Made by a program: the position numbers and the translations under genes. From an uncultured bacterium (GTDB taxonomy: Bacteria; Planctomycetota; UBA8108; UBA1146), in NCBI GenBank assembly GCA_937876125.1, contig CALEHF010000263.1, forward strand, positions 3,025-67,024: a stretch of DNA of 64,000 nucleotides. The letters run 5' to 3'. The notes beneath the pieces were generated by a model. That model had not been told where the DNA came from, did no database searches, and saw only the letters and a program-made list of their open reading frames with translations. Shown in pieces: positions 2,314 to 53,749 of this stretch. The number at the start of each line of letters is the position of its first letter. Positions within the stretch are counted from its first letter, which is position 1.

Positions 2314-3293
2314 GGTGTTCTCGTCTCCCGTCGCAGGCGCGCGACGAGTTTCTTCATGTCGCCGGGGAACGGCGCCACGCATTCGAGCGCGGAACCCAGG
2401 CGCGGATGTTCGAATCGAAGCCGCTCCGCATGCAGCGCCTGCCGGGGAAATTTGATCGGCTCGCCCACGCGTTTCGTCGTATAGAGCCGCTCGCCGACCA
2501 ATGGATGACCGCGCAGCGACGCTTGGATACGGATCTGATTGCGCTTGCCCGTCACGAGTTCGACCGCGAGAAGAGTTGCCCGATCACCAAACCGTTCGAC
2601 GACGCGGTAGCGGCTGATCGCCTCGACCCCGTCCTCACCCACCCGTGCGCGCCGCTGGACATGGGTTTTTTCATCGGCGAAGAGGCTGTCCTCCCACGTC
2701 CCCGAGTCTTCGACGACCAAGCCGTTCACGACGGCTCGGTAGCTGCGCTCTGGAAGTCGCCGGTAGAACTGGTCGCGGAGCTTTTCCTGCGCTTCGGTGC
2801 TGCGCGCGACAACGACCAGCCCCGTCGTCCAGCGATCGATGCGATGCACAATGAACAAGCGTCGACGCTGCTTTTGGTCCAGGGCGACTTCGAGCCGGGC
2901 CAGCACGGTGTCGTCTTGCCCCTCCGCACCATTGCGCGGCACCGTGAGCAGGCCCGCGGGCTTGTCGACCACGATCAAATCTTCGTCTTCATGAATGATC
3001 TGCATTTCACCGAGCACGCTTCGCGCCGCGCCGCCCGCGGCAAGGCCGGTCGGCTTGGCGGATCCGGGACGATCGAGCCAGATCCGAACCCGCTCTCCCT
3101 CCTTGAGAATTCGCCCCCCGTCGCGCACGCCCTGAAGAGCGTCGTTGACGAAGATCTTGCCCCGTTCGAGGGCCGTAGCGGCGCGCTTCCGTGACCCGAG
3201 GCGCTCGTGGGCCGCGAGCCACTTGTCGAGGCGCTCTCCGGCAGCACTGGCGTCGATCAGTTGCGTCTCGCGGTCGTGGGGGTCGGTATTCAT
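2310..3293 (-). CDS. RluA-family 23S rRNA pseudouridine synthase (RluC/RluD-like, N-terminal S4 domain)
   Basis: S4-like N-terminus (LDKWLAAH..RKRAATALERGKIFVND) and catalytic motif HRIDRWTTGLVVVARS (HRLDxxTSGL). Stop overlaps start of downstream methyltransferase. Confidence 0.8.
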   Translation of the reverse strand: MNTDPHDRETQLIDASAAGERLDKWLAAHERLGSRKRAATALERGKIFVNDALQGVRDGGRILKEGERVRIWLDRPGSAKPTGLAAGGAARSVLGEMQIIHEDEDLIVVDKPAGLLTVPRNGAEGQDDTVLARLEVALDQKQRRRLFIVHRIDRWTTGLVVVARSTEAQEKLRDQFYRRLPERSYRAVVNGLVVEDSGTWEDSLFADEKTHVQRRARVGEDGVEAISRYRVVERFGDRATLLAVELVTGKRNQIRIQASLRGHPLVGERLYTTKRVGEPIKFPRQALHAERLRFEHPRLGSALECVAPFPGDMKKLVARLRRETRTP

Positions 3294-39060: not shown

Positions 39061-39526
39061 CAGTCTCGGGTGAAGTGACGACGTAAACTTGAAACCACAG
39101 CACTTCACCCGAGCCTGCAGGTCTTGCGGCGAATCGGCAAGCCGTAGCCGTGATCAGTTGCTTATTCTAGGCCTAGGAGGCTGTCGGAGAACTGCTTTCG
39201 AACCGAGGGTTGTAGATTTCGGTGGCCTGTGCCCTCGGCAGAGCGCAGTCATACTGCTTTGTACGTCGAGTTCTGCCGAGGGTGCAGGGTGCCGGAAGCT
39301 CAAATCGTCGGTCGGAATGAGTTCTCCGACAGCCTCCTAGTGTGGTGTTCGAGCAGGAGAGAGTGATCAAGGTCTTCGAGCAAACTCGGTGAGCTTGCTC
39401 CAGAATCGCGGATCGGTCATGCTCTCGGGCTCCAAGATCGATTCCGATCCCACCCAGAACTCTCGCTCGCGCGCATGGCCTCGGTGCGTGCCGCGGACTC
39501 ATTGAAGTGATGACAATAGCGTCGGT

Positions 39527-39600
39527 GCCCCGTTAGCTCAGCTGGATAGAGCAGCCGCTTCCTAAGCGGCAGGTCACAGGTTCGAATCCTGTACGGGGTA
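39527..39600 (+). tRNA. tRNA-Arg (anticodon CCT)
   Basis: Cloverleaf: acceptor GCCCCGT/ACGGGGT, D-arm AGCTCAGCTGGATAGAGC, anticodon loop TTCCTAA (CCT), T-arm GGTTCGAATCC; discriminator A; CCA not encoded. Confidence 0.85.
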
Positions 39601-39603
39601 CTT
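39559..39603 (+). repeat. attL-like core: 45-bp 3' portion of tRNA-Arg repeated at 47360-47404
   Basis: Identical 45-mer ttcctaagcggcaggtcacaggttcgaatcctgtacggggtactt present at both sites. Confidence 0.8.
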
Positions 39604-39831
39604 CAACCTAAAGCTGAGGGCTCTTGCGGGTCAGGTTCGGTGCGGGACGTACGTGGACGCTGCGCGGAGGGGTTACTTCGTGGCTTCATGGAACGTCGGG
39701 GTGAGGGGGCGTTCGGGGGGGCTCGGGAACGGATCCGAGAAAGCAGCGGAGCACGGAAGTGCTGCGGCTGTGGGGAGGTCCGGAGTCTCTGTGACCGTGT
39801 CACCCTTGACTCCACCCTCTGACCCAGGTCA

Positions 39832-40749
39832 CTAGCCCTCGCTCGCATCACAGACGATCAGCGGAACCGTGCCGATCAAGGCGTCGAGCGCATCCGAGAC
39901 AGGCCCCTCGATGGTGGGCAGGATCGGGGCGAGGGCGTCCTCGATGATCGTTGCGAAGATCCCGTTGAGAATTCCGGAGATCAATCCGAGACCGGGACAG
40001 CGGGAGAAGTCGGCGACCGGGTTGGTCACCGCCGGGACGACCGATCCCGGGGTGACCCCGATGATCTCTGACGCCCCCGGCGCGACCGAGATCGTGTCGA
40101 AAGACCCTGTGAGGGACCAGTCGACCGTGATCGCGACATTGCAGCTCACGTTGATCGTGAATGCGGTGATCGTCACGGGGACCACCGGCGCACCGGCGCT
40201 GCCGGTGACCGTGAAGGTGTGAGTCGCGGCGTCGTACGTGACCGCATCCACGGACAGTTCGGCATCCGCCGCAGAGGTCTCGATGGTGACCCCCGATTGC
40301 TCGAACATCTGCGCCGGAATCACGCCGGGGAGCGGCACGGTTCCCGTGATGATCGAAAGACCCGCCGCCACGACCGTCTCGTCCACGCACGTCACCGTGC
40401 CACAGCCGATGAGGTCGAAGGTCGGATCTTCTCCGAGTTCGCCGTACGGCGGCGGGATGGGGTTGGTGCTGTCGAGGAAGAGGAAGATCAACGTGAAGAT
40501 GGTGTCGGCGCAGTCGATCGTCCCGTCATCGTTCGCGTCCGCGGCGTCATCGCAGGGGAGCGGTGCAGATCCGGGCAAGAAGAGGAAATTGAGCGTCGCG
40601 ATCGGGTCCGCGAGGTCCAGGTCACCGTCTTGATTCACGTCCCCGCGAAGAAAGGGTTGGTCGATCAGACCCGCGGTCAGCGCGGGAGTGAATCCGGTGA
40701 GAAGCGTGGCGATGGACAAGATCAGGACACGTCGCATGATCGGCTCCAA
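39832..40749 (-). CDS. Secreted protein with N-terminal double dockerin-like module (family member D); first gene inside tRNA-Arg island
   Basis: Signal peptide MRRVLILSIATLLTG; FLRGDVNQDGDLDLADPIATLNFLF...PCDDAADANDDGTIDCADTIFTLIFLF...PIPPPYGELGEDPTFDLIGC. Confidence 0.6.
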   Translation of the reverse strand: MEPIMRRVLILSIATLLTGFTPALTAGLIDQPFLRGDVNQDGDLDLADPIATLNFLFLPGSAPLPCDDAADANDDGTIDCADTIFTLIFLFLDSTNPIPPPYGELGEDPTFDLIGCGTVTCVDETVVAAGLSIITGTVPLPGVIPAQMFEQSGVTIETSAADAELSVDAVTYDAATHTFTVTGSAGAPVVPVTITAFTINVSCNVAITVDWSLTGSFDTISVAPGASEIIGVTPGSVVPAVTNPVADFSRCPGLGLISGILNGIFATIIEDALAPILPTIEGPVSDALDALIGTVPLIVCDASEG

Positions 40750-41537
40750 TGCTCGGTCGGCGTAGGGAGAACGTTAGTCGCAGACAATAGCGGCGTCGTC
40801 AGGATCAAGGCAGCGACCGCGTCGCTCACTTTGGTTTCGAGTCCGGCAAGTATCGGATCGATCGCGTCGGTTAACCTGACCGCGCCCACCGTCAATTCGG
40901 CGTCCGCCGTCATGATACCGACCGTCACTCCCGATTGCGTAATCGTTTGGGCGAGGACCGCACGGGAAGAAGAAGGGCTGAGACAGTCACAGGGGCCCCC
41001 GAAGGTCTTCGCATGAGGGGCTTTGCGACTTCCCAACGGCACAGTGAGAGCCCGGTGGTTGCGCACGTCTTAAGTCCACCAACGTCCGCAAGATTCCCGG
41101 CAAGCGGTCTCGCAAGCGCGCTCGAGACAAGGGAGGCAGCTTTCCCCCGCGCGGCGCGGATCACCCATTGCGGAAAGAGTCTTGAGATTTTTGGTGTCTC
41201 GCTAGGAGATGGAATCGAGCTGGATGGGTCGGTAAGGTCCTCATTCAGATACGTGAGTCGATCAAGGATGGAAAAGTTCAAACGCGCGCTGATGCCCTCG
41301 CCCTGATTGAGGAGCTTACTCAGAAGGTCCGGACTGATTCTTGTATGACTGAACTCTGGGTCCGGGTTGTCGAGTTCGTGAGCGACTCAGAGCTTCGTCG
41401 CTCACCCTGTTCCGATCTCGCTGAGAGGGTGGTCGGCGCAAGGCCAGTGGTGCCTCGCGAATCTGGGGGAATACGATTCGACATTGAAGTGATGGCGTGG
41501 ACACGAGCATCCAAGTGAAGCGATGACAGGAGGCCAA

Positions 41538-42380
41538 ATGAAGTGGTTCTGGGTGGGTCTCCTGTGGGGACTCCTCGTTCCCGGGAGTGCACGATCTGCT
41601 GAGCTCGACATCTGGACGTTCAACCTACGTTACGCGAGCACGTCGAATCCCAACTCGTGGGAGGCGCGGCGTCCCGTCGTGAAGGCGCTCTTGAGCTTCG
41701 AACAGCCTGACATCATCGGGACTCAGGAGGGACTGTACGCTCAGGTGCGGGACATCGACGCGGACCTTCCCGCGTACGACTGGATCGGGACGGGTCGAGA
41801 AGGGGGAAGCCGCGGAGAATTCATGGCGATCTTCTACCGCGCGGAACGGTTCGAGCCGATCGCGTTCGACCATCGCTGGCTCTCGAACACGCCCCGCGTG
41901 GTCGGCTCCAAGAGTTGGGGCAACTCCGTCGTGCGCATGGTCACGTGGGTCGAGTTTCGAGATCGCCGCGACGGGACGCGCTTCATCGTCGTCAACACCC
42001 ACTTCGACCACGAGAGCGAAATCTCCAGAATGAAGAGTGCGGAATTTCTGGCCCAACTCGTGGGCGAGCTCGACCCGAAGCTGCCGGTGCTCATCACCGG
42101 GGACTTCAACGCTCCCGCGATGACGAGTGCCACATACCAAGCCCTCGTGAACCACGACGTCATCGACACCTGGACCGAAGCCACATCGAAGTCCGAAGTC
42201 TACGCGACCTATCACGGTTACCGGGGCCCGAAGAAGGACGGCGCGCGCATCGACTGGGTGCTCGCTCGCGGCGTCGCTTCCGTCACGAGCGCGAAGATCC
42301 ATACGGACTCGAAGGACGGCCAGTACCCGAGCGACCATTTCCCGGTATCGGCCGCGGTGCGGCTCACCGCACCGCGGTAG
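41538..42380 (+). CDS. Secreted endonuclease/exonuclease/phosphatase (EEP) family protein
   Basis: EEP motifs LDIWTFNLRY..., IIGTQE, VVNTHFDHES, ITGDFNA, SDHFPV; signal peptide; AGGAGG RBS. Confidence 0.8.
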   Translation: MKWFWVGLLWGLLVPGSARSAELDIWTFNLRYASTSNPNSWEARRPVVKALLSFEQPDIIGTQEGLYAQVRDIDADLPAYDWIGTGREGGSRGEFMAIFYRAERFEPIAFDHRWLSNTPRVVGSKSWGNSVVRMVTWVEFRDRRDGTRFIVVNTHFDHESEISRMKSAEFLAQLVGELDPKLPVLITGDFNAPAMTSATYQALVNHDVIDTWTEATSKSEVYATYHGYRGPKKDGARIDWVLARGVASVTSAKIHTDSKDGQYPSDHFPVSAAVRLTAPR

Positions 42381-42840
42381 CCAACAGGAAGCCGATCCGA
42401 ACGAACTCAGCGAGCGGCCAATCCCACCACCCCGGGACCACAGACAGGTGCTGTCACCACTCGCCAGTTCGAAACCTTCGCTGAAATTGCTCCAGCAAGG
42501 CCGATTCTTCCCCGAGGCGTGGAGCCTTCAGTTCTCAGGAGTGATCTGCTCTTTCTCCAAGCCCTCCGCTTCTTCCCGGTGCTTCAGTACTGACCAAGCA
42601 AGATCAGGCCCAAGGCGGCGCCGCTCCGTCTCGATGGCGCCACTCTGAACTCCACTCTGCCCCCCACGCCCCTCCCGCCCTGCCCCCTGCACGTTCGCAA
42701 CGAGACATCGCACACACTCGGCGGCCTCGGCGTAGAAGCCGCGCGACGCCCAGGGCGATCGTCAGCAACCCAAGTCGACCCTGGAAGGAGCCCATCATCG
42801 ATTGCGGAAGCAGCGAACGCTCTGCTAAAGTCCCTCCGCA

Positions 42841-43344
42841 ATGTCCAAGTCACTCGAACTCCATCGAAGACCGCCGCAAGCGCGCCCTCTGTTTTGCCAG
42901 CTGTTCGCACTCTTGCTGATCGGGTCGAACCTCCTCGTCCCGATCCTGCACGGCTTAGCGCACACCCACTCTCCTGAGTTCATCGCGTCCGGCCCCACCG
43001 CACGCGCCTCTCACTCTCACTCTCACTCTCACTCGCACGCTCACGCGCATGTGCGAGACGGGGCATATCACCATTCGCGCTCTCCTTCCCACGCTTGTTC
43101 TGCCGCTACCAGCAGAGCAAAGCTCGCAAGCCGCGACCCAGCAAATGCGCCGGATCACGACCATCGCACCTGCCTGGTCTGCCAAGCGTTGGCGGGATCA
43201 TGGACTTGGGAACGGCCCGCTCCATCGGCGCTGTTGTGCTCCGCGAGCGGAATCACAGCCCCCACTCGCCACTCATCGGTTTCTCTTCACCGACGTCTCG
43301 ATCTCAGCGCGCGAGCGTCGCGCGCCCCACCTCTCTGGGGATAG
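42841..43344 (+). CDS. Small His-rich (HSHSHSHSHAHAH) putative metal-binding protein
   Basis: N-terminal hydrophobic segment then H-x-H repeat encoded by (CACTCT)4 hexanucleotide tandem repeat at 43011-43034; remaining sequence low complexity. Gene call moderate. Confidence 0.4.
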   Translation: MSKSLELHRRPPQARPLFCQLFALLLIGSNLLVPILHGLAHTHSPEFIASGPTARASHSHSHSHSHAHAHVRDGAYHHSRSPSHACSAATSRAKLASRDPANAPDHDHRTCLVCQALAGSWTWERPAPSALLCSASGITAPTRHSSVSLHRRLDLSARASRAPPLWG

Positions 43345-43494
43345 CGCCTCGCCGCAGTTTCTGCGGCCAGAAGCACATCGTGGCATTCTGAATAGGCCTT
43401 CCTTCGAAGGCCGGTCGATCCCCCACCATCGCCTTCGCTGCGCCCTTTCGATCGGAAGGTCGATCCGCAGCGCCGTGCGCCCAGAGGAGAAAAC

Positions 43495-44925
43495 ATGAAC
43501 AGCTCCCTCAGCCCCTGCGGCGAGTTCTCTGCCCGAATTCGTTGCCTGCTCACCGTCGCGGTCTTGACGCTCCCGTCCCTCTCTGCGATTGCCCAAGATC
43601 ACGATCACTCGAGTGAGAGCCCAGCCGATGCCCCGCAAGTGCTCGCTGGGCCACTGCTCGATTCGTCACAGCTCGATACGTCACTGGTCGATCAATCCAG
43701 GGGTCTCGAACTGGACCAGGACCACTCCCACGAAGCGCAGAGCGATGACCTCGCTTCGCACGAAGCGGGACCGGTCACCTTGCGGCTCACCGACCTCTCG
43801 CTCAATCTGCTTCTCGCCCTGGGCACCTCGACCGAGCGCGATGCCTCTCTCGAGTCTCTCCAAGGAGGGGGCCACGATCCGCGCAAGCGCGGGATCACGC
43901 TGCAGAATCTCGAGTTCTCCATCGCCGGTGCTGTCGACCCGTACTTCTCGGCCGAGACGCACCTCATCTTCTTCGTCGACCCGATCGAGGGAGAATCGAT
44001 CTTCGAAGTCGAGGAGGCCTTTCTCACGACGCAGCAGCTCCCTTTCCATCTCGAAGAACACGGACTCGAGCTCGAACTCGGGCAGATGTTCACGGAGTTC
44101 GGATTGCTGAACCCCCGCCACCCCCACACTTGGGATTGGCTGGACCAGCCGATCATCAACTCGCGGCTCTTCGGACCCGATGGGATGCGGAGCCCGGGGG
44201 TGCGCCTCGAATGGCAAACGCCACTTTCTTGGTACTCGGCGGTTCACGTCGGCATGCAGAACGCCAACGGCGAATCTATGGCGAGCTTTCTCGCCTCCGA
44301 TGAGTTCTTTGGAGAGCGGCCGATCGGCGGGGTGGGGTTCGAGGATCGAGAAGTGCGGTCGCTGCGCGACTTCGTCTACCTCACGCGGTGGCAGAACGCT
44401 GGGTCACTTTCTCCCGAGGTCTCGGGAAAGATTGGAATCTCCGGCCTCATCGGTCCCAATGCGAGTGGGGCAGATGGCCAAACGATCGTCGCCGGAGGAG
44501 ATCTCCTGATCGAGTGGCGCCCCCAACGTGAGGACTCTGCCCCCTTGGTCACCTGGCAGACCGAAGTCATGCAGCGGGACTATGAGGTCGATGACCAAGC
44601 CGCGCTCTTGCCGGGGGAAGATCTCGGGGACTGGGGGATGTACTCGCAGCTCCTCTGGAGTTTCCACCCCAATTGGGCTGCGGGTCTCCGCTATGAGTTT
44701 GTGTCGGGGAGCGGCAGCAGTGTCGGGGGGCGTGACGCCGATCCATTCCGCGACGATCGTCAGCGCATCGCACCGCTGATCGCGTGGGAAGCGAGCCACT
44801 TCTCGCGCGTGCGATTCCAGTACAACTACGACCAGGCCGAACACCTCGAGGACTCCGCCCACTCATTCTGGATCGGGTTCGAGGTGATGTTGGGGACGCA
44901 CCGGCAGCATGAGACAAGGAGGTAA
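43495..44925 (+). CDS. Outer-membrane beta-barrel protein with His/Asp-rich N-terminal region (CopB/PcoB-like metal-resistance porin candidate)
   Basis: Signal peptide (AVLTLPSLSAIAQD). N-terminal DHDHSSES...DQDHSHEAQSDD His-rich region. C-terminal ~330 aa with alternating amphipathic strands ending RVRFQYNYDQ; GAGGAG RBS. Confidence 0.45.
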   Translation: MNSSLSPCGEFSARIRCLLTVAVLTLPSLSAIAQDHDHSSESPADAPQVLAGPLLDSSQLDTSLVDQSRGLELDQDHSHEAQSDDLASHEAGPVTLRLTDLSLNLLLALGTSTERDASLESLQGGGHDPRKRGITLQNLEFSIAGAVDPYFSAETHLIFFVDPIEGESIFEVEEAFLTTQQLPFHLEEHGLELELGQMFTEFGLLNPRHPHTWDWLDQPIINSRLFGPDGMRSPGVRLEWQTPLSWYSAVHVGMQNANGESMASFLASDEFFGERPIGGVGFEDREVRSLRDFVYLTRWQNAGSLSPEVSGKIGISGLIGPNASGADGQTIVAGGDLLIEWRPQREDSAPLVTWQTEVMQRDYEVDDQAALLPGEDLGDWGMYSQLLWSFHPNWAAGLRYEFVSGSGSSVGGRDADPFRDDRQRIAPLIAWEASHFSRVRFQYNYDQAEHLEDSAHSFWIGFEVMLGTHRQHETRR

Positions 44926-45306
44926 CGCGCGCGCGGAGACTGGTCGCCGGAAGGAGGAAGTTCAGCGATCTCGACGTCGAGCCAAGACCGAGTCGATCGC
45001 GTGGACCACATTCTCGAGTTTGGGTGGATTGAGCGCGTCAGGATGCGACGAAGCGCACCGGCGTGAGTCATTGTCGAGGTACTGACCGGAAGCGGCAGCG
45101 AAGCATGGTGACGGATGCACAGGTAGCTGGACTCGGCTGGGGCGGACATCGCCTCCCCCTTCGCGCAATTGTGACGACTGCGGCCGCGCGCCGGGGGGCG
45201 AATTGAAAATCTTGGTTGGCGTCATGCGATCCACCGCCTACCCTCGCAACACTGATCGGGGTGCCGACGAAGCACTCCGGACCCTCCATCCAAGAGAGGA
45301 CATCGG

Positions 45307-46128
45307 GTGCCACGCATGAAGTTGCTGATTTGTTTTGCTGCCATACTTCACCTCACTCTTCCCTTGATCGGTCAGACCGGTGGTCAGTTTCAGGACTGGA
45401 AACGTGACGCTGCGAAGGCAGAGACTTCAGAGGATCGAATCGGGGCCCTCAACCGTATTGCGTGCGCGTCAGCTGAGGAGGCCAAAGCCTCCGAGATCGT
45501 GCGAGCGATCGCGGCCTCGCTGAAGGACGTCAATACCGGCGTTCGCGTACATGCCGCTTGATTACTCGGACAGTGCGAGGACCAGAACGATGCGCTGAGG
45601 AAACTAAAGTCGGCCCTCACCAGTGGCCGCAGTTCATTCCTCAAGGCACAGAAGGTCTTGAGAGTGACGGAGGACCAACGCTTTGCCACGATTCTCCGCT
45701 GGTGGGACATCAAGAACGACCCAAAGTCGGAGAGCGCGGCGGAGTCGGGGTCGTACCTCGCGGTTCTCGCGGCTGAACTCGCTCTCCTTGAAGACTACCT
45801 GGCCGCGCAGCGCAGACGAGACCGCGGACGAGAGTTCTGTCTCGCGATTTGCGAGAGCCTCTCGAAGCTGGAACAGGAGGCGGCTGCCGCCGAGGCCGCG
45901 GTCCTCAAGTTCTATGAAAAAGTCGCCGCGAAGTCGGTCGATCAGTGTGCCCCGTTCGCGCCGATTCTGCTCTCCTTCGGAACGCGACCCTGCTGGGCTG
46001 CGGTCGCAGAGTGCATCGAGGAGAACGATGCGCTTCTTCGCACCTGGAAAACGCGCCGCGAGCTCATAGACTCGTACGAGGCCAGGCGCGCCGAGGGCTC
46101 GCCGACAAAGCCTTCTCCATTCGAGTGA
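45307..46128 (+). pseudogene. Secreted HEAT-repeat protein interrupted by in-frame TGA at 45559-45561
   Basis: ORFs 45307..45561 and 45658..46128 share one frame; only stop between them is TGA at the variable position of a HEAT repeat (VRVHAA-*-LLGQ). No SECIS-like hairpin. Confidence 0.4.
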
Positions 46129-47206
46129 CCTTGTGGTCAAGAAGTAGACAAGCTTCGGAATCGGAGACACTCACCATCTTGGCAACAGTGCGGTGAGTGC
46201 GTCGGAGCAAGTGGCCGGTCTCTGAGGGCAGCGACTTCTCGCGCCACGTGGCGGTGGCGATCACCTTCTTCCCGTCATTCGACCGCGACGGGAATAAGTA
46301 GGGGTTGGGTCCGAAGAGAGCCTCTCCGACTCGAAGTGCTTCCTCGACGATCTCGATCATGGTGTCAGACAACGGCAGGTCGAAGCTACGGCCGCTCTTC
46401 ATGCGAGGTATCCGGATCGCGCGATTCTCCAGGTCGACTCAGTCTCGCCTCAGGCTCACCAGAGTCCCCGGGCGTAAACCTGAGAACAGCCCAAGCTGGT
46501 GCATGCAGCGACGAATCGGATTGTTCAACGCGACAACCTTTGCCAACCAACCGGGGAGATCCTCGGGCAAGATCACCTTGTCGGAGATTCTCTCCTTGTG
46601 ACGCGTCACGGCTGCCGTCGGGTTGGCGGGCAGGGAATCCGGGTCGTCTACCACTCGGAGTGCGAAGTCGTAGGCACTCCGCAATGCCGCCATAGACCGA
46701 TTCGCGGGGTACTTCCCGTGGTCCTTGGTGAGCTGCTCGTGGCGTGCTCGGCATGTGCTCCGTTTCAGCTCGGTGATCGGGAGCTCCGCCCAGTCCGCGA
46801 GGTACTTCGTGAGCATGTAGCGGAATCCGTCGATCGACCGGGGCGACAACTATCGCTTCGTAATGTCCGCTTCGTACTCGTCCCAGAGCCGAGCGACCGT
46901 CCAGGCCTCGGCGTGCTGAGAAGGGGCGTTGGGATCGATCCCACGCTTGATGTCAGCAAGCAGGGTCATGGCTTGTGACCGAGCGTCGTCGAGGATGATC
47001 TCCCCGACCCGGCCGAGCGTTCTCCGCACAGTCCGAACGAGCCTTCGTCGAGGCCGCTCCCCGGTGTAGAGATCAGCCTGGATCTTGAAGGACTTGGACT
47101 TCTGATTCACTTGGACGAAAAAGCCAGGGAGGGCGGAGTCGCGAAGCTGGTACGGCTTCCCGTTGAACTTGGCGTCTCGTATCTTGGCGTCGGTGAGTCG
47201 TGGCAT
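46064..47206 (-). pseudogene. Degenerate P4-type tyrosine integrase (three same-frame fragments separated by TAG and TGA, C-terminus lacking catalytic Tyr)
   Basis: N-terminal Arm-binding domain LTDAKIRDAKFNGKPYQLRDSALPGFFVQV. Core-binding fragment, then catalytic fragment with HLLRRTHRTVA / LLLDHK box II-like motifs. In-frame stops at 46850-46852 (TAG) and 46439-46441 (TGA). Confidence 0.7.
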
Positions 47207-47359
47207 GGCAGCTTCCTCTCGCGAACCGTGTGCGTGGGAAGCCCGAACCGTGTGCGAACCGTGGCACTAGCCGGTTGGCGAAGGTTCCTGTAGAAGTATT
47301 CGATACTAAGTGCTTATAGGCAAGGGACCTGACGGTCTGGGACGCGTAAGCCCTTGCGA

Positions 47360-47404
47360 TTCCTAAGCGGCAGGTCACAGGTTCGAATCCTGTACGGGGT
47401 ACTT
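47360..47404 (+). repeat. attR-like 45-bp direct repeat of tRNA-Arg 3' end
   Basis: Exact copy of 39559-39603 with no upstream D-arm/acceptor, so a fragment rather than a tRNA gene. Together with the integrase remnant at 46064-47206 it defines a ~7.8-kb integrated element (39604-47359). Confidence 0.8.
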
Positions 47405-47605
47405 TCACAGCTTGGCGGCCCAGCTCACAACCGTCCGTTCCACAAAGCAACGGGCTGGAGGTGCTCCCCCATCCACTCTGGAAGGTGATGTCCGGCGAAG
47501 AGCCAGTGCCCGACGGGAAGAGCACGCATTGCTCTCCGTTCATGTACCTTTGCCGCGCTCGCTCGTGGCTCGCGAGGAATGACTTTTCGCCTTGGATCGT
47601 AGCGA

Positions 47606-47674
47606 GCAGCCGCTCGAGGGGGTGCCTCGCGGATCGTGCGGAAGACCTTTGTGGATTAGGGGCTTGAGGGGGGT
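47606..47674 (+). repeat. 65-bp direct repeat R1 (partner at 51631-51697), contains GTCTGTGACCG core motif
   Basis: First 26 nt ggatcgtgcggaagacctttgtggat identical in both copies, remainder ~80% identical. Confidence 0.75.
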
Positions 47675-47740
47675 CTGTGACCGTCCCTTGGTCCCATGAC
47701 CGCGAGGCTCTCCGGAGAAAGTCTACTGTCCCGCCCTTCC

Positions 47741-48994
47741 TTATTCAGCGGCGTGCCCGAAAACGACGACGAAGGCGAGGATCAGAATGAGACCACCAAA
47801 TCGGATTCTCTCGAAGAAACAGCGCCAGCCACTCGTGCACTCTCCGGCGGCGAGCCAAGCATTGATACCCTGCAGCAAGTAGTAGAAGGCGAAGGCGCGC
47901 GAGGCGATGCTGATGATCTCAAAAATTTCGGCGAACCAAACGAGAGCGATCGCAGCGGCAGTGATGACGAGATAGCTGCGACGCACGTCGAGTTTTTGCT
48001 CGGTGTTCTCCGCCATGAGACCGCCGCCGCCCACGGTGTCGGCGACCGCGGCGCTGAACTGGCTCATAACTGCGGCGATGACGAGCATTGCAGGAAGCAC
48101 GGGAGAAACTTGGCGCGTGAGTTCGATGATGGCGGTCTCATCGGGATCGGTTCCTTTGAGATGAGCAAGGAGAGGGAGAGCGAGAAGAACGAAAACCACG
48201 TAGATGACGCCCGACACGAACTGCGCTTGGCGCATGCTGCTGATGCGAGTCTCGACGTCGTATCCCTCACCGAGATAGCGCGAAGTTTCGAACCCCTGCA
48301 CGATGAGGAGCAATCCAGCGAGAAGGCGGACCTGATGAAAGGGGTCATGATCCTTGATCGGGATGGTGTTCGCGAAGACTTCGCCTCCAGAACCGAGGTC
48401 GAACATGCCGAGACCGAGGAGGACCGCGGCGATGATCGCCAGCTTCACGGTGACAGAGAACGCTTCGAGCCGTTCGAGGGCGTGCAGTCCGCGGGTGAAC
48501 CCGGTGAAGCCGATGAAGACAAGGATCGAAGTGGTGAGGAGTTTTGCGTAGGCGCCGACGTCTTGACTGGTTCCATAGAGAAGGAACGAGGCGAGAAGCC
48601 GGACATAAAACGTGACCGAAACGATGTAGGCGGCGGACAGAGCAAGTCCCGAGACCTTCTCGACCAGCCAAATGCTGCGCGGGGGGATGACGTGGTTGAC
48701 AACGAGGGGTTCGACGTGGCGGATATTGAATCGAATGATGCCACCAATGCCGTAGGCGAACAGAACGATCGCAATCATCGCCACCGGGGCGGCATTTCCC
48801 ACGATCACGGCGACGAGAGGCGCCGCAACGAGAAATCCGCTTCCGATGATCGATGCCAACGGTGTGACGGTGGCCTGCCATCGGGCAGACCTCCGCACCT
48901 GGGGTGAGAACAGCCACGCGGCAGTCGCGGCCGCGGCGCCAAGGATGCCGAAGTCGATCAGGGACATAGGGTTGAGTCTACCCCTTTCCGCCAC
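47741..48994 (-). CDS. Polytopic membrane protein (transporter-like), unknown function
   Basis: About 10-12 predicted TM helices, no clear family signature. Confidence 0.5.
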   Translation of the reverse strand: MAERGRLNPMSLIDFGILGAAAATAAWLFSPQVRRSARWQATVTPLASIIGSGFLVAAPLVAVIVGNAAPVAMIAIVLFAYGIGGIIRFNIRHVEPLVVNHVIPPRSIWLVEKVSGLALSAAYIVSVTFYVRLLASFLLYGTSQDVGAYAKLLTTSILVFIGFTGFTRGLHALERLEAFSVTVKLAIIAAVLLGLGMFDLGSGGEVFANTIPIKDHDPFHQVRLLAGLLLIVQGFETSRYLGEGYDVETRISSMRQAQFVSGVIYVVFVLLALPLLAHLKGTDPDETAIIELTRQVSPVLPAMLVIAAVMSQFSAAVADTVGGGGLMAENTEQKLDVRRSYLVITAAAIALVWFAEIFEIISIASRAFAFYYLLQGINAWLAAGECTSGWRCFFERIRFGGLILILAFVVVFGHAAE

Positions 48995-49374
48995 TCGCCA
49001 GCACCGCGAATGCGAGAGCCGGGTGAGTCAATGTTGGCAACCGACGATCCTACCAGCCTCCCTCAAACTTCGAGGCTGGCGAAGACGCTGACCCCAGCCT
49101 TGTCGAGCTTCTGCTGGATGCGCGCCAGCGCCCCGAGCTTATCGTCTCCCCGAACGCGGAGAGCGGGGTGGGGCTCGTCCCCAGCATGCCCCCCCGCTTC
49201 GACGAGATCAGGCTTGTCGGACGTCCCGAGCACCGCGGTGATCTTACGCTCACGCGCGTCGTAAACTTCTTCATCGTCAGCAGGCTCTTCCCTGGATTCG
49301 TTTGGGGAATGGCTGCATTCCTCGCGATGCTCGAGTAGTCCCTGGAAGCACGGAACGGGTGTCCGCACCCGCCT

Positions 49375-49845
49375 CTACCCCCACCTCAACGCGAGAGCGA
49401 AGAGAGCCGCGGCCGCGAGTGGCGCGGCGGTCCTCACGTGATTCCAACGAGTCCATCGAGCGAGATAATGAGTCCAAAACTCGGCAGCGTCCTCCTCATG
49501 CGCTTCAACAGCTGCCAATCGGTTGTTCAGCGGCACGTTGAAGGCGATGGTCACGAGCAGACAGCCGATCAGGTAGAGGCCACTCCCCACGAGCGTCAGG
49601 ATGAGCGGAACACCGATGGCCTGACCGAGAGCGACGATGACCAAGGCGATACACACGACCCCCGTTCCGAAGAAAGCCCCGAGGAACCAAGGGTTCAGGA
49701 CCGTGATGTTGATCGCTTGCATGGCACGCACTCCCGATTTTTCTGGGAGTTGACCGAGAGCGCGCAACACGAAGGTGGAGGACGCAAAGAAGATCCCGGC
49801 GACCAAACCGGAGCCGAGCAGGGCAACGAAGGTCAAAATTTTGCC
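49375..49845 (-). CDS. DUF1772-like small membrane protein
   Basis: Four hydrophobic helices, pattern similar to anthrone oxygenase-like/DUF1772 proteins; ORF-track 5' end overlaps transposase stop, true start likely internal. Confidence 0.4.
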   Translation of the reverse strand, partial: GKILTFVALLGSGLVAGIFFASSTFVLRALGQLPEKSGVRAMQAINITVLNPWFLGAFFGTGVVCIALVIVALGQAIGVPLILTLVGSGLYLIGCLLVTIAFNVPLNNRLAAVEAHEEDAAEFWTHYLARWTRWNHVRTAAPLAAAALFALALRWG

Positions 49846-49850
49846 TCTCC

Positions 49851-51083
49851 TCACACATCTGTGGGTCCCGGCAGAGGCGGATCCAGCTCGATTCCACCAC
49901 GACACAGGTACATGAGCGCGATCAGCGGCTGCGGGCCGTGGAAGCCGAACGCGCGTCGCGCGATCATCCGAAGACGCGTGTTCATCTCTTCGACGATCCC
50001 GTTCGTGAGTCTCTCGTCCACGTACGCCAACACTCCGTCAAGGTGCTTCCGAATCGTTCGCGCTGTCTTCACGAACGGTTTTAGTTTCGACCGTGACGCC
50101 CAAGCTAACCAATCCCTCAATGCTCGCTCTGCCCGCCATCTTTGTTTGTACTCGAGCGCCTTTGCCAGCGTCTCTTTCAACAAGTATGCACGGAAGAGCG
50201 GCGCGTTCGACTTCTCAATCTCCCGCAGCTTCTTCTTCTCTCCGTCGTTGAGGCTCCATGGGTTCTTCAGCACGACGAAACGGCTGCGGAACAGGTCCTT
50301 GCCCTCGGGCGTGCCACGCAACTCTCGAAGCTCCTCACGTCGCACCGCATCGAAGGCGTCACTGGCCAGTCGTTGCACGTGAAAGCGGTCGAAGACCACC
50401 TGGGCATTGGGAAGATGCTCGCGAATCGCTTTGTGATAACCGGCGGACATATCGATCTTCGCCGCTTCGATCTCAGCACATCGCCTCGGTCCGAGTTCCT
50501 CGAAGAAGGAGGCGAGCGTTGTCGCTCTCGCACCAGGCCCAGCCCAGACGATGCGTCGACGGTCGTGATCCACGACAACGGTCAAGTACTTGTGTCGTCG
50601 ACGGTAACTGAACTCGTCGACTCCGATTCGTTTCAGGCCGTTGAGGCGCTCTGGATCGAGTCGATAGCCGACGACCCGATCCACGATCCGGCCCACTGTC
50701 GCCCAGGAGATCCCCATCAACTTTTGAACGGAAGTCTTGTCGGTTGACTGGGCGAGGTAAGCAGTGAGCCCCTCGAAATCGTGAGTGAAGCCGCTGTTGT
50801 GTGCAGCCCAAGGAACCGACTCCACGCGAACTCCACAGGTCGGGCAGCTCACGCGACGAGGGGCGTAGACGAGCCAGACTCGCGGGCGCCCGAGGCCGAG
50901 GTGGCGCCAACGTCGAGAGGAGACCGAGTCGAAGCCCGGCGCGGGAGCCCGACAAACGCCGCAACGAGGCAACTTGGCCCTCGGTCGCACGAAGACCAAG
51001 AGGTCCCCAGAGGAGAAGTCGAATCCCTGAACAAAGAGAGTAGTGATGCCGAGAAGTCGACGAAGTAGAGTCTTGGTGCGCAC
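49851..51083 (-). CDS. ISL3-family transposase
   Basis: N-terminal zinc-finger/HTH region (RCGVCRAPAP...CPTCGVRVESVPWA) and DDE_Tnp_ISL3 core (VDEFSYRRRHKYLTVVVDHDRRRIVW..., KIDMSAGYHKAIREHLPNAQVVFDRFHV). Confidence 0.8.
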   Translation of the reverse strand: MRTKTLLRRLLGITTLFVQGFDFSSGDLLVFVRPRAKLPRCGVCRAPAPGFDSVSSRRWRHLGLGRPRVWLVYAPRRVSCPTCGVRVESVPWAAHNSGFTHDFEGLTAYLAQSTDKTSVQKLMGISWATVGRIVDRVVGYRLDPERLNGLKRIGVDEFSYRRRHKYLTVVVDHDRRRIVWAGPGARATTLASFFEELGPRRCAEIEAAKIDMSAGYHKAIREHLPNAQVVFDRFHVQRLASDAFDAVRREELRELRGTPEGKDLFRSRFVVLKNPWSLNDGEKKKLREIEKSNAPLFRAYLLKETLAKALEYKQRWRAERALRDWLAWASRSKLKPFVKTARTIRKHLDGVLAYVDERLTNGIVEEMNTRLRMIARRAFGFHGPQPLIALMYLCRGGIELDPPLPGPTDV

Positions 51084-51306
51084 GGGACCTCCGCGATCTT
51101 GTGGTTGTGGTTAACAACAAGAAAGCACGGTCTCGTGCCGTTTTCACATCTCTCTCCATCACAAATTCCTGGTGTCCCCCGGAGCTCCGTCGCCCTCGGC
51201 GTCGGTCGCGCCCTGCCCTCGCGAAGCGAGCTTGGGCCGATGCCGAGGGCGGCGGTGCGGAGGGGCCCGGCAGCTCCCGAGCTCGAGGTTGAGTGGGCGA
51301 GGTTTC

Positions 51307-51564
51307 TCACCTACGATCTACCCACTGAGGTGTGAGGAGAGGCCGGTTATTCTCGTTCGATTCGCAACTTGTATCGCGGGTTGGGTCGAAACCGCAATCG
51401 AGCGGCGCGGGGGGCTCTGATCCCATCTGGAACAAGGAGTTCAGCAGGTTGATCGGATCCGCGAGGTCGACGTTGCCATCGTCGTTGGAATCGGATCCGC
51501 TCTGACAGGTGCTCTGGGGATCATTGAAGAGAATGATCCCGAGGAGTGTCAGAGGATCACCCAC
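51307..51564 (-). pseudogene. Truncated dockerin-like module remnant (family member E)
   Basis: Only a single repeat plus terminal Cys motif (SDSNDDGNVDLADPINLLNSLF...PPAPLDCGFDPTRDTSC); upstream body absent; lies between ISL3 and repeat R2. Confidence 0.45.
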
Positions 51565-51630
51565 ATCGACCCCGCCGTCGAGATTGGTATCACCGCGGCG
51601 GAACTGAATCTGTTCGAAGGGGGGCGGCGT

Positions 51631-51697
51631 GGATCGTGCGGAAGACCTTTGTGGATGAGGGCTTGTGGGGTGTCTGTGACCGCCTGTTGGTCAAGCC
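51631..51697 (+). repeat. 65-bp direct repeat R2 (partner of 47606-47674)
   Basis: See R1. Confidence 0.75.
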
Positions 51698-51810
51698 ATC
51701 AAACGACAATCCGAAGATCATCAGGCAACGCACTCCTGTATCGTGTCGATACGAGAAATGTACGTGCCCCAAGAAGAGCGCTGGCCCGATGGATCAGAGG
51801 AGTCGAACGC

Positions 51811-52716
51811 ATGCGTGGCTGGATCATCTATCATCGTCCTGTCGACAAGAACGACGTGAGATCTCACGGGTGCCGCCGCTTCTTGGAGTCGGCGGAGAAG
51901 AACGGAGTCGAGCTTGATGTCGTCTCCCCCGAAGAGATCGATCTGGTCGTCACCCGTGAAGATCGCAAGGGGATCCTGCTCCGAGGCAAGACGACGTCAC
52001 TCCCCGATTTCGTGCTCCCGCGCACCGGCTCTGCAACGACCTACTTCACACTGGCCGTGATTCGCCACCTCGAGCGACTCGGCGTCACCTCATTCAACGG
52101 GTCCCACGCTATCGAAATCGTCAAGGACAAGCTCTACAGCCAGCAGATTCTCGCCCAGAGCAACTTCCCTGTACCGCGAACAATGCTAGGACGGCCACCG
52201 GTCAACCTCGACGTCGTTGAGGCCCAGATACGGTTCCCAGTCATCGCAAAGACGATCAGTGGATCCCAGGGAAAAGGAGTGTATCTCTGCCCCGATCGGG
52301 AAAGTCTGAACGCCACGATGGAAGAGATCAGCGCTCTCAAGCACTCACCGAACGTCATCTTCCAGGAGTTCATCGAAGCAAGCTACGGCCAGGACTTGCG
52401 GGTGTTCATCATCGGGGGACGGGCGATCGGCGCGATTCGGCGGGTAGCAAACGATGGATCGTTCAAGGCGAACATTTCACTCGGGGCGAGGGCAGAACCA
52501 TACGAGTTGACCCCCGAGGCTGAGTGGCTCGCTTCCGAAGTCGCTCGCCTCCTCGGCCTCGAGATCGCGGGAATCGACCTGCTGTTCGATACCGACGGTC
52601 TCAAGATCTGCGAAGCGAACTCCTCACCCGGGTTCAAGGGAATCGAGATGGCCTACGATATCGACGTTCCGAGTGAAATTTTCCGGTTCATCAGAGTCCG
52701 GCTGGGGCTCCTCTGA
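51811..52716 (+). CDS. rimK: RimK-family ATP-grasp alpha-L-glutamate ligase
   Basis: Strong RimK similarity (ATP-grasp motifs FPVIAKTISGSQGKGVYLC, IFQEFIEASYGQDLRVFIIGGRAIGAIRR, EANSSPGFKGIE); ATG 51811 chosen over upstream TTG/ATG. Confidence 0.75.
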   Translation: MRGWIIYHRPVDKNDVRSHGCRRFLESAEKNGVELDVVSPEEIDLVVTREDRKGILLRGKTTSLPDFVLPRTGSATTYFTLAVIRHLERLGVTSFNGSHAIEIVKDKLYSQQILAQSNFPVPRTMLGRPPVNLDVVEAQIRFPVIAKTISGSQGKGVYLCPDRESLNATMEEISALKHSPNVIFQEFIEASYGQDLRVFIIGGRAIGAIRRVANDGSFKANISLGARAEPYELTPEAEWLASEVARLLGLEIAGIDLLFDTDGLKICEANSSPGFKGIEMAYDIDVPSEIFRFIRVRLGLL

Positions 52717-52765
52717 TCCGATCGAAGGAGGGCTGGCAGTGATCCGAGGGGGCGTCACGAGCGCG

Positions 52766-53278
52766 TCATGAACCGGCCTCGTCGAGAACAGAGGCCAGTA
52801 GATCAGCCAACGCTCTCCGCTCGCTGGCCTTGAGAGCAGAGACCGATTCGGCAGCATCCTGAACCCTGGCCCCGATCGCTCGATCGACGAGCAGGCGTCC
52901 TTTCCGCGTGAGGACGACGAGCCAGCTCCGTCCATCCGCCTCGTCCGCTTCTCGCCTGACGAGGCTCCGTTCCTCGAGACGATCGATTCGATTCGTCATC
53001 GCACCAGAGGTCAAATGTGCCGAAGAACAGAGTTCTGTTGGGGTCAGTTCAAACGGTTCCCCCACTCGGCGCAGCGCTGAAAGAACGTCGAACTCCCACG
53101 GCTGCAATTCAAAAGGCTGCAGGGTCTCCTTCAAGCGCCGACCCAAATCTTGCGCCAGGATGAGAACCCTGAGAACAACCGCCATGCCAGTGAGATCGAG
53201 ATCGGGGCGCTCACCCCGCCACTGCTCCAGCATCTCATGTACGACATCACCGGCCGGCTTCTTCTTTGCGCTGTGCAT
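52766..53278 (-). CDS. MarR-family transcriptional regulator
   Basis: wHTH region LQPWEFDVLSALRRVGEPFELTPTELCSSAHLTSGAMTNRIDRLEERSLVRR. Confidence 0.75.
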   Translation of the reverse strand: MHSAKKKPAGDVVHEMLEQWRGERPDLDLTGMAVVLRVLILAQDLGRRLKETLQPFELQPWEFDVLSALRRVGEPFELTPTELCSSAHLTSGAMTNRIDRLEERSLVRREADEADGRSWLVVLTRKGRLLVDRAIGARVQDAAESVSALKASERRALADLLASVLDEAGS

Positions 53279-53288
53279 GGTCCATCTT

Positions 53289-53749
53289 TCAACGAAGGTC
53301 AGTGAGTCGATCCATCGCGTTGTGAGATTTTCTCGATCTTTGAACTCTTGCCCAAGCGGAGGTCTCGAATGCCTCCCCCCGGCGGGAGCGATCTGCGAGG
53401 GGATCTGCGGCCGCCGTCGCGCAATCGATACAATAACGCACGTAGGGGATCGCCTCCAGGCGGGCGCGGCTGATCCCATGGCCGCACATTTCGCACTCGC
53501 CGAAAATCCCGTACTCGATCTTGTCGATCGCCGCATCGATCTCCTTCAGCGCTTCGAAGTCTCGAGCGTACACCCCAAGGGCGAACTCCTCCAATGAGCT
53601 GGTCGAAGCGAGATCGTCGTTCTGATCCTCTCTGGAAAGGGATGTCTCGGTCGCCACTTGGTCATGAAGCTGGGCACGATGCACGAGAATAGCGCGAAGC
53701 TGGTTCAGTCGCCGTTCAAAGTGCCGGGTGTGTTTCGCGCTAAGTGTCA
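53289..53749 (-). CDS. DksA/TraR-family C4 zinc-finger regulator
   Basis: C-terminal CxxC-N17-CxxC zinc finger (CEMCGHGISRARLEAIPYVRYCIDC) after coiled-coil; start approximate. Confidence 0.6.

Follow-up and report, generated by a model that had tools for sequence, protein, structure and literature searches.

Islands and satellites with P4-type (Arm-DNA-bind_3/DUF4102) integrases, such as P4, CP4-57 and elements resembling phage-inducible chromosomal islands (PICI), target the 3' half of a tRNA gene, are bounded by a direct repeat of that half, and carry their attachment (att) site upstream of the 5' end of the integrase gene (int), together with arm-type repeats. In P4 and CP4-57, int adjoins the tRNA gene and has the same direction. 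The same anatomy is seen in a 7.8-kb stretch of the 64,000-nucleotide sequence analysed here (the window: positions 3,025 to 67,024 of contig CALEHF010000263.1, assembly GCA_937876125.1, from an uncultured member of the Planctomycetota; coordinates below count from its first letter). This stretch is a decayed, immobilised remnant of a small phage-satellite-like element at tRNA-Arg(CCT), a well-known kind of feature. It differs from the P4, CP4-57 and PICI-like elements in that its int is a pseudogene and the entire backbone is gone, and from P4 and CP4-57 also in that int of its clade lies at the tRNA-distal end, divergent from the att core.

Within the remnant is a two-gene unit, a small leader open reading frame (ORF) followed by a porin gene, for which the closest described system is the copper-responsive leader CruR. 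Roy et al. (PMC9426467) defined the family by a CxxC motif, an RAPP motif, the spacing between them, the location of the gene at the head of the operon and a long intergenic stretch. In the protein of Bordetella pertussis, Bp2923 (CruR), 45 residues separate CxxC from RAPP, which occupies residues 139–142 of 145; at this motif the nascent peptide arrests its ribosome, an arrest that copper lifts via CxxC, and the relief permits Rho-dependent termination before a TonB-dependent transporter gene (PMC9426467). A related case, CutF of Rhodobacter capsulatus, acts at the level of translation (bioRxiv 10.1101/2025.02.05.636593).

Anatomy and origin of the satellite remnant

The only tRNA gene detected by ARAGORN in the window, tRNA-Arg(CCT), is intact (39527–39601, plus strand; Rfam tRNA score of 68 bits) and represents the integration target on the attL side; an Rfam scan of the window gave no match besides this gene. 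The 45-mer TTCCTAAGCGGCAGGTCACAGGTTCGAATCCTGTACGGGGTACTT, which extends from base 1 of the anticodon loop to 2 nt beyond the discriminator base, is present in exactly two copies in the window, identical at 45 of 45 positions, with none expected from shuffled sequences. One copy is the attL core (39559–39603) and the other, a displaced copy of the tRNA 3' half, is the attR core (47360–47404), both on the plus strand. No third site was found in the window when up to three mismatches were allowed, and each half of the 45-mer searched alone returned the same two sites. A previous reading made from the sequence only had described 7.8 kb lying between an intact tRNA-Arg(CCT) and a perfect 45-bp repeat of the tRNA 3' end, with the reservation that the 45-mer might be a dispersed repeat; ARAGORN, Rfam and the repeat search agree with the description, and within the window the reservation falls away. 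The predicted empty-site junction reads ...GAGCAGCCGC + 45-mer + TCACAGCTTGG, and the predicted circle junction ...GCCCTTGCGA + 45-mer + CAACCTAAAG.

The attR core is adjoined by a P4-type tyrosine integrase pseudogene (46113–47206, minus strand), identified from Pfam matches, the reading frame and homology to intact relatives. A single minus-strand frame runs from 47206 to about 46113 without any frameshift across 1.1 kb, and is interrupted by in-frame TAG (46850–46852) and TGA (46439–46441) codons. Arm-DNA-bind_3, SAM-like (SAM_1) and Phage_integrase domains were recognised, the last covering only profile positions 24–138 of 172. At the DNA level, homology to the intact relatives ends at about 46112–46116, just ahead of the codons for the GMDGVY tyrosine motif, and beyond this point the sequence passes into the last part of a convergent ORF, whose stop codon is at 46126–46128. 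The nonsense positions show the same bases in contigs assembled independently from other samples, so the lesions are real rather than sequencing errors. Frame, domain coverage and the endpoint of homology all bear out the sequence-only reading of a P4-type integrase next to the distal repeat, broken by TAG and TGA and lacking the catalytic Tyr. Since a functional integrase would have an intact frame and this residue, and the window copy has two nonsense codons and no GMDGVY, the island is a remnant and not an active element; the integrase is dead and the element immobile by itself.

The start of int lies 153 nt from the attR core, with int divergent from the core. Of the four copies of CACGGTTCG in the 64-kb window, three are located in this spacer as direct repeats (47222–47263, minus strand) and are conserved in two related loci, L010 and L012; they are probably arm-type integrase binding sites.

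The closest intact integrases, P0121 and P0122, are 71% identical to the window int and sit in satellite-like elements of 10.5–11 kb adjoining tRNA-Arg(CCT). The backbone of these elements comprises int, an HTH_17/AlpA-type excisionase and a D5/DUF5906 primase; the L010 element additionally encodes the small and large terminase subunits (TerS/TerL) and a moron, and the L012 element a restriction–modification module and an inserted IS256-type transposase. In this set of int, AlpA-type excisionase, D5-type primase and terminase genes, the intact relatives resemble the P4, CP4-57 and PICI-like elements. L010 has an imperfect copy of the tRNA 3' half, with four mismatches in 45 nt, that likewise ends at the anticodon loop. 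This copy is found 147 nt upstream of int, in divergent orientation; 10.9 kb away, the intact tRNA gene faces the element with its 3' end. L010 and the window therefore share one layout, with the att core divergent from int, a spacer of 147 versus 153 nt, and the tRNA gene 10.9 versus 7.8 kb off. The core-to-int spacer can be aligned between the window, L010 and L012 and contains three conserved ACGGTTCG repeats. Since att topology, spacer and repeats all correspond, the attR end of the window island and the end of the intact satellite-like elements are homologous in each of these features. A tblastn search of the window with all backbone proteins of L010 and L012 recovered the integrase only, and no excisionase, primase or packaging genes; the window copy retains int and att alone. 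A scan of viral contigs with an intact relative of the integrase returned nothing.

The intact element in L012 (9495–20467; also in L013) is located between two complete tRNA-Arg(CCT) genes that differ from each other, one of which lies immediately upstream of int in divergent orientation, and this element seems to carry its own full copy of the tRNA.

The best explanation of the locus, with a probability of roughly 0.7 in our estimate, is that a P4/PICI-like satellite of about 11 kb at tRNA-Arg(CCT) was internally deleted, leaving accessory DNA that includes the leader–porin module. Its attP core, which had the same sequence as the 3' half of tRNA-Arg(CCT), would have recombined with the chromosomal gene, rebuilding the tRNA at attL and pushing the old 3' half to attR; int, tRNA-distal as in the rest of its clade, would have been transcribed inward from the att-proximal region with its three arm-type repeats. 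A single internal deletion with a junction at about 46112–46128 could then have removed the last 25 or so codons of int, including that for the catalytic Tyr, and with them the excisionase–primase–terminase backbone, the two nonsense mutations in int having arisen before or after this event. The 7.8 kb that remained would be incapable of self-excision and would hold accessory DNA coding for a dockerin-like protein, a phosphatase of the endonuclease/exonuclease/phosphatase (EEP) family, an ORFan pseudogene and the two-gene metal module.

It is also conceivable, although we consider it unlikely, that two elements inserted serially at the same tRNA gene, and that one deletion took the int of the first, the middle att site and the backbone of the second; the DNA with the dockerin, EEP, leader and porin genes would then be foreign to the element of the surviving int. 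Serial integration is known to favour tRNA genes. The cargo bears no resemblance to the backbone or accessory genes of the intact relatives, the truncated int abuts an unrelated convergent ORF, and a mosaic of GC content at third codon positions (GC3), 0.82–0.83 on the left versus 0.65–0.76 on the right, speaks slightly for such a history. However, neither a third att copy nor a second integrase has left a trace in the window. Moreover, the relatives keep their accessory genes at the tRNA-proximal end (the restriction–modification module in L012, the moron in L010), so that a simple internal deletion suffices. The island is a routine example of a tRNA-targeting satellite dying in place with its accessory genes left behind, and it brings in a further clade, one whose integrase lies at the tRNA-distal end.

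The leader–porin module

The first gene of the module is an ORF of 167 aa (42841–43344, plus strand), read from the sequence alone as a His-rich HxHxH protein for metal handling. Its architecture is instead that of a leader: a hydrophobic N-terminal segment is followed by the insert HSHSHSHSHAHAH, the CxxC motif CLVC (residues 111–114), 46 residues, RAPP (residues 161–164 of 167, codons at 43321–43332), three residues and the stop codon. The insert, a 13-residue (H-S/A)n tract, and the total of 18 His residues make the window leader unusual.

Each of the five other loci examined, three of them in planctomycete-like contexts, one labelled Deltaproteobacteria and one Geobacteraceae, has a similarly built ORF ahead of its porin gene. 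Common to all six loci are a hydrophobic N-terminus, a His-rich stretch, CxxC, 44–46 residues, R(A/G)PP, and a further 1–8 residues before the stop codon; the spacer between leader and porin genes varies from 98 to 538 nt and is 150 nt long in the window. The gene caller missed the upstream ORFs in the other loci (L007, 7531–7902; L008, 7324–7737; L009, 6995–7462; L122, 5619–5897; L124, 5626–5889), which points to systematic under-annotation of CruR-type leaders. Against the DUF2946 profile (PF11162, gathering cut-off of 23.7 bits), the L008 leader scored 27.6 bits, above the cut-off, followed by L122 with 23.6, P0249 with 13.9 and the window leader with 11.3. A phmmer search of 1.84 billion representatives with the window leader found only one credible relative. 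Judged by its sequence, the window leader would belong to a divergent DUF2946 subfamily, and the His-rich ORF is most likely a leader peptide of the DUF2946/CruR type, not a structural metal-binding protein.

The 150-nt spacer (43345–43494, plus strand), with an AGAGGAG Shine–Dalgarno-like site ahead of the porin ATG, is structured and C-rich (C 0.36 versus G 0.27). It folds better than shuffled controls (z = -2.65), and nowhere in the region is the GC skew more negative than at 42.5–43.5 kb. These features are compatible with a switch of the Rho utilisation (rut) type or with a structure-based one. Consensus scans of the coding strand around the unit detected no sigma-70-like promoter and no terminator.

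The second gene encodes an outer-membrane porin of 476 aa (43495–44925, plus strand), a 16-stranded barrel with an OprP-like fold and a disordered, His/Asp-rich N-terminal region. It has no sequence match in Pfam, NCBIfam or PDB. Homologues with 50–65% identity number over a thousand and occur across phyla, most of them unnamed and a few called 'TonB-dependent receptor'. In each of the five other loci, znuA, usually znuC, and znuB are located directly downstream of the porin gene, and the neighbourhood of porin loci also includes genes for a Fur-family regulator with FeoAB, a cation diffusion facilitator exporter, and Cu/Zn superoxide dismutase. Remnants of znuA, znuB or znuC were not detected in the window by tblastn, and the window module is a shortened version of the usual leader–porin–znuABC operon. 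The ZnuA-family partner genes in the relatives suggest that the leader–porin module serves divalent-metal import, with zinc as the most likely substrate and manganese or iron as further candidates, rather than copper resistance. For annotation, the gain is that a widespread porin family, left unnamed or taken for TonB-dependent receptors, can be described as an OprP-like porin tied to ZnuABC importers.

The nearest known porins are the phosphate-selective OprP and OprO and general 16-stranded trimeric porins. The window porin is similar to OprP and OprO in fold only: it has no Pfam Porin_O_P match, its gene is linked to metal importers, and invariant His, Asp and Glu residues (for example in GGGHDPRKRG, NPRHPHxWxW and a C-terminal HxxH) take the place of an arginine ladder. 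Assignment to the TonB-dependent receptors was rejected, since these have a 22-stranded barrel, an N-terminal plug and a TonB box. A literature search did not turn up any described porin for zinc that resembles it; a FUR-regulated 'psp' porin of Geobacter, weakly similar to OprP (PMC545781), may be related. In the window protein, the disordered N-terminus carries the motifs DHDHSSE and DQDHSHE (43495–43740, porin residues 29–82), which are not present in the L007 and L008 orthologues and parallel the extra His tract of the leader.

With CopB and PcoB, the porin shares an outer-membrane beta-barrel and a His-rich disordered N-terminal region, and the sequence-only reading had accordingly proposed a CopB/PcoB-like barrel. 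A copper-resistance or periplasmic metal module of this type, with a His-rich metal-binding protein, would agree with the His-rich tracts in both proteins and with the literature connecting DUF2946 proteins to copper. Nevertheless, such an interpretation is contradicted and is hardly credible: there is no Pfam CopB match at E ≤ 10, the fold is a 16-stranded, OprP-like one, the partner genes encode ZnuA-family importers and not cop or pco products, and the small ORF has the arrest-peptide design of a regulatory leader. CopB/PcoB was therefore rejected as the identity of the porin. Among the five cargo ORFs, only the leader and the porin bear out the more general proposal of metal-handling cargo; the EEP, dockerin-like and HEAT-like ones do not.

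The likeness of the leader to CruR consists in an N-terminal export-like segment, the sequence of CxxC, 46 residues (45 in Bp2923) and RAPP, the latter in the window three residues before the stop, and the position as first gene of a unit, separated by a long spacer (150 nt in the window, 162 nt in Bordetella) from an outer-membrane transporter gene. However, the gene downstream is a TonB-independent porin in the window and a TonB-dependent transporter with PepSY_TM in Bordetella; in the relatives, the operon continues with a ZnuA-family ATP-binding cassette importer; and the window leader has a His insert and a sequence below the Pfam cut-off.

By analogy with CruR, the leader would be translated first, and the nascent chain would stall the ribosome at RAPP under metal scarcity. 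The stalled ribosome could shield the C-rich spacer from Rho, or open the spacer, so that the porin would be expressed, and metal bound to CxxC, probably aided by the His tract, would free the stall and switch expression off. The OprP-like channel might feed a ZnuABC-type importer in other genomes, the importer being missing at the window locus. One could tentatively go further and propose that the leader–porin units form an undescribed CruR-type branch spread across several phyla, in which a His-rich DUF2946 leader controls a metal porin and a ZnuABC-type importer and senses scarcity of zinc (or manganese or iron) instead of copper; this is possible, but we would not call it the likelier outcome. 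A leader that senses zinc would carry the recently discovered arrest-peptide mechanism beyond copper. Such a leader would be the first protein-leader switch for a transition metal other than copper, and the porin a metal-selective member of the OprP-like fold, offering a testable way for zinc to cross the outer membrane; how it does so is poorly understood except where TonB-dependent systems are at work. The leader–porin–ZnuABC module is absent from the CruR contexts listed in PMC9426467 and is the only part of the island that deserves follow-up.

Several points weigh against a working, metal-responsive module in the window. Its leader scores below the PF11162 cut-off, has flat GC3 (0.65) and was skipped by the gene caller in most contigs; stalling and metal response have been shown experimentally in Bordetella and Rhodobacter only; and a porin gene left without znuABC may be a non-functional leftover.

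Fixation, composition and age

Exact-protein look-ups of the porin and both flank genes retrieved contigs from eight different samples, and all informative ones carry the island. No same-strain contig from these samples has tRNA-Arg joined directly to the right flank, which supports fixation of the island in the sampled population.

More distant genomes were searched for an empty site as well. The right-flank APC permease, used in a scan of genome contigs (GTDB, one genome per species), had its best match, of 61% identity, in a metagenome-assembled genome of Verrucomicrobiales, with no tRNA-Arg nearby. For the left-flank DUF6288 protein, a scan of metagenome contigs yielded 78 relatives with 60–69% identity, none with a neighbouring tRNA-Arg or a shared neighbour gene. 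The comparison with related genomes that the sequence-only reading had recommended thus gave same-strain contigs that all contain the island and relatives that lack synteny.

The case for an acquired element has its weak sides. No empty tRNA-Arg site was seen in any relative searched, and insertion is argued from anatomy. The composition of the island, likewise suggested for comparison with the flanks, is near that of the host: its GC content is 0.62 versus about 0.635, by tetranucleotide distance it ranks no higher than among the top 5% of windows, and the atypical composition continues past attR to about 53.5 kb, the right flank being equally atypical. The cargo may be a mosaic, because the two leftmost genes have host-like GC3 values of 0.82–0.83, compared with 0.65–0.76 for the rest. 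These same facts, near-host composition and the lack of an empty site among the contigs and relatives searched, would fit an ancestral region in which the repeat and the int fragment arose by a small rearrangement or partial duplication of the tRNA, but this is highly improbable given that the repeat begins precisely where the anticodon loop does, that the att–int spacer, arm repeats and int orientation match the intact elements point for point, and that site-specific integration puts everything between the cores inside the element.

The sequence-only reading had called the island an old acquisition, now fixed by decay of the integrase. Fixation agrees with the contigs from the eight samples. 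The age is not established, since the attR core matches at 45 of 45 positions (the L010 copy has four mismatches in 45), the int frame has acquired no frameshift and the composition is near that of the host. The donor presumably had an identical tRNA half and would thus be a close relative, and inactivation of the element need not be ancient.

Other cargo and flanking DNA

The remaining cargo lies on both sides of the leader–porin module. A secreted protein of 301–305 aa (39832–40749, minus strand) with host-like GC3 (0.83) contains two DxNxDG dockerin/EF-hand-like repeats; its Pfam Dockerin_1 match has an E value of only 0.47, and it is 38–44% identical to the dockerin modules of neighbouring host genes. 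The secreted EEP-family hydrolase (41538–42380, plus strand) has a signal peptide and a Pfam Exo_endo_phos match (1e-15), and its best solved relatives are Bacteroides EEP proteins (PDB 3g6s, 6e-42), including the mannosyl-6-phosphatase 4c1r (1e-34). Considering these relatives, the enzyme is more probably a carbohydrate-related (sugar) phosphatase than a nuclease or metal protein.

The ORFan at 45307–46128 (plus strand), a putative pseudogene, encodes a signal peptide, has one in-frame TGA at 45559, and abuts the truncated int with its 3' end. Its Pfam HEAT_2 match (E = 0.0044) is under the cut-off, and a database search matched only the ORF itself, with no homologue beyond this strain. As the sequence-only reading had listed, the cargo includes EEP, His-rich and barrel ORFs; the dockerin and HEAT labels of that list correspond to sub-threshold Pfam matches. 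Three gene-poor stretches of 380–770 bp occur inside the island (40750–41522, 42381–42840 and 44926–45306), an unusually low coding density that fits decay.

On the left, a 168-bp element resembling a miniature inverted-repeat transposable element (MITE), with 29-bp terminal inverted repeats, is located at 39173–39340, 186 bp upstream of the tRNA gene. In L001 (1714–3363), these repeats enclose a complete gene for a DDE_Tnp_1 transposase. The unrelated left flank of L001 joins the window sequence exactly at the MITE, and the sister contig L118 ends inside it; single-nucleotide polymorphisms between contigs cluster at 39150–39249. The L001 left flank was set aside as a variant locus, an assembly break or a rearrangement mediated by insertion sequences at the MITE, itself derived from an insertion sequence, being the better explanation. 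On the right, the segment from 47405 to 53500 encodes an APC_Aq_097 permease, an Anthrone_oxy protein, an ISL3 transposase (49851–51083), RimK and MarR; its GC content of about 0.60 and its GC3 are below those of the rest of the window. The whole stretch from 39 to 53.5 kb may be a composite variable region.

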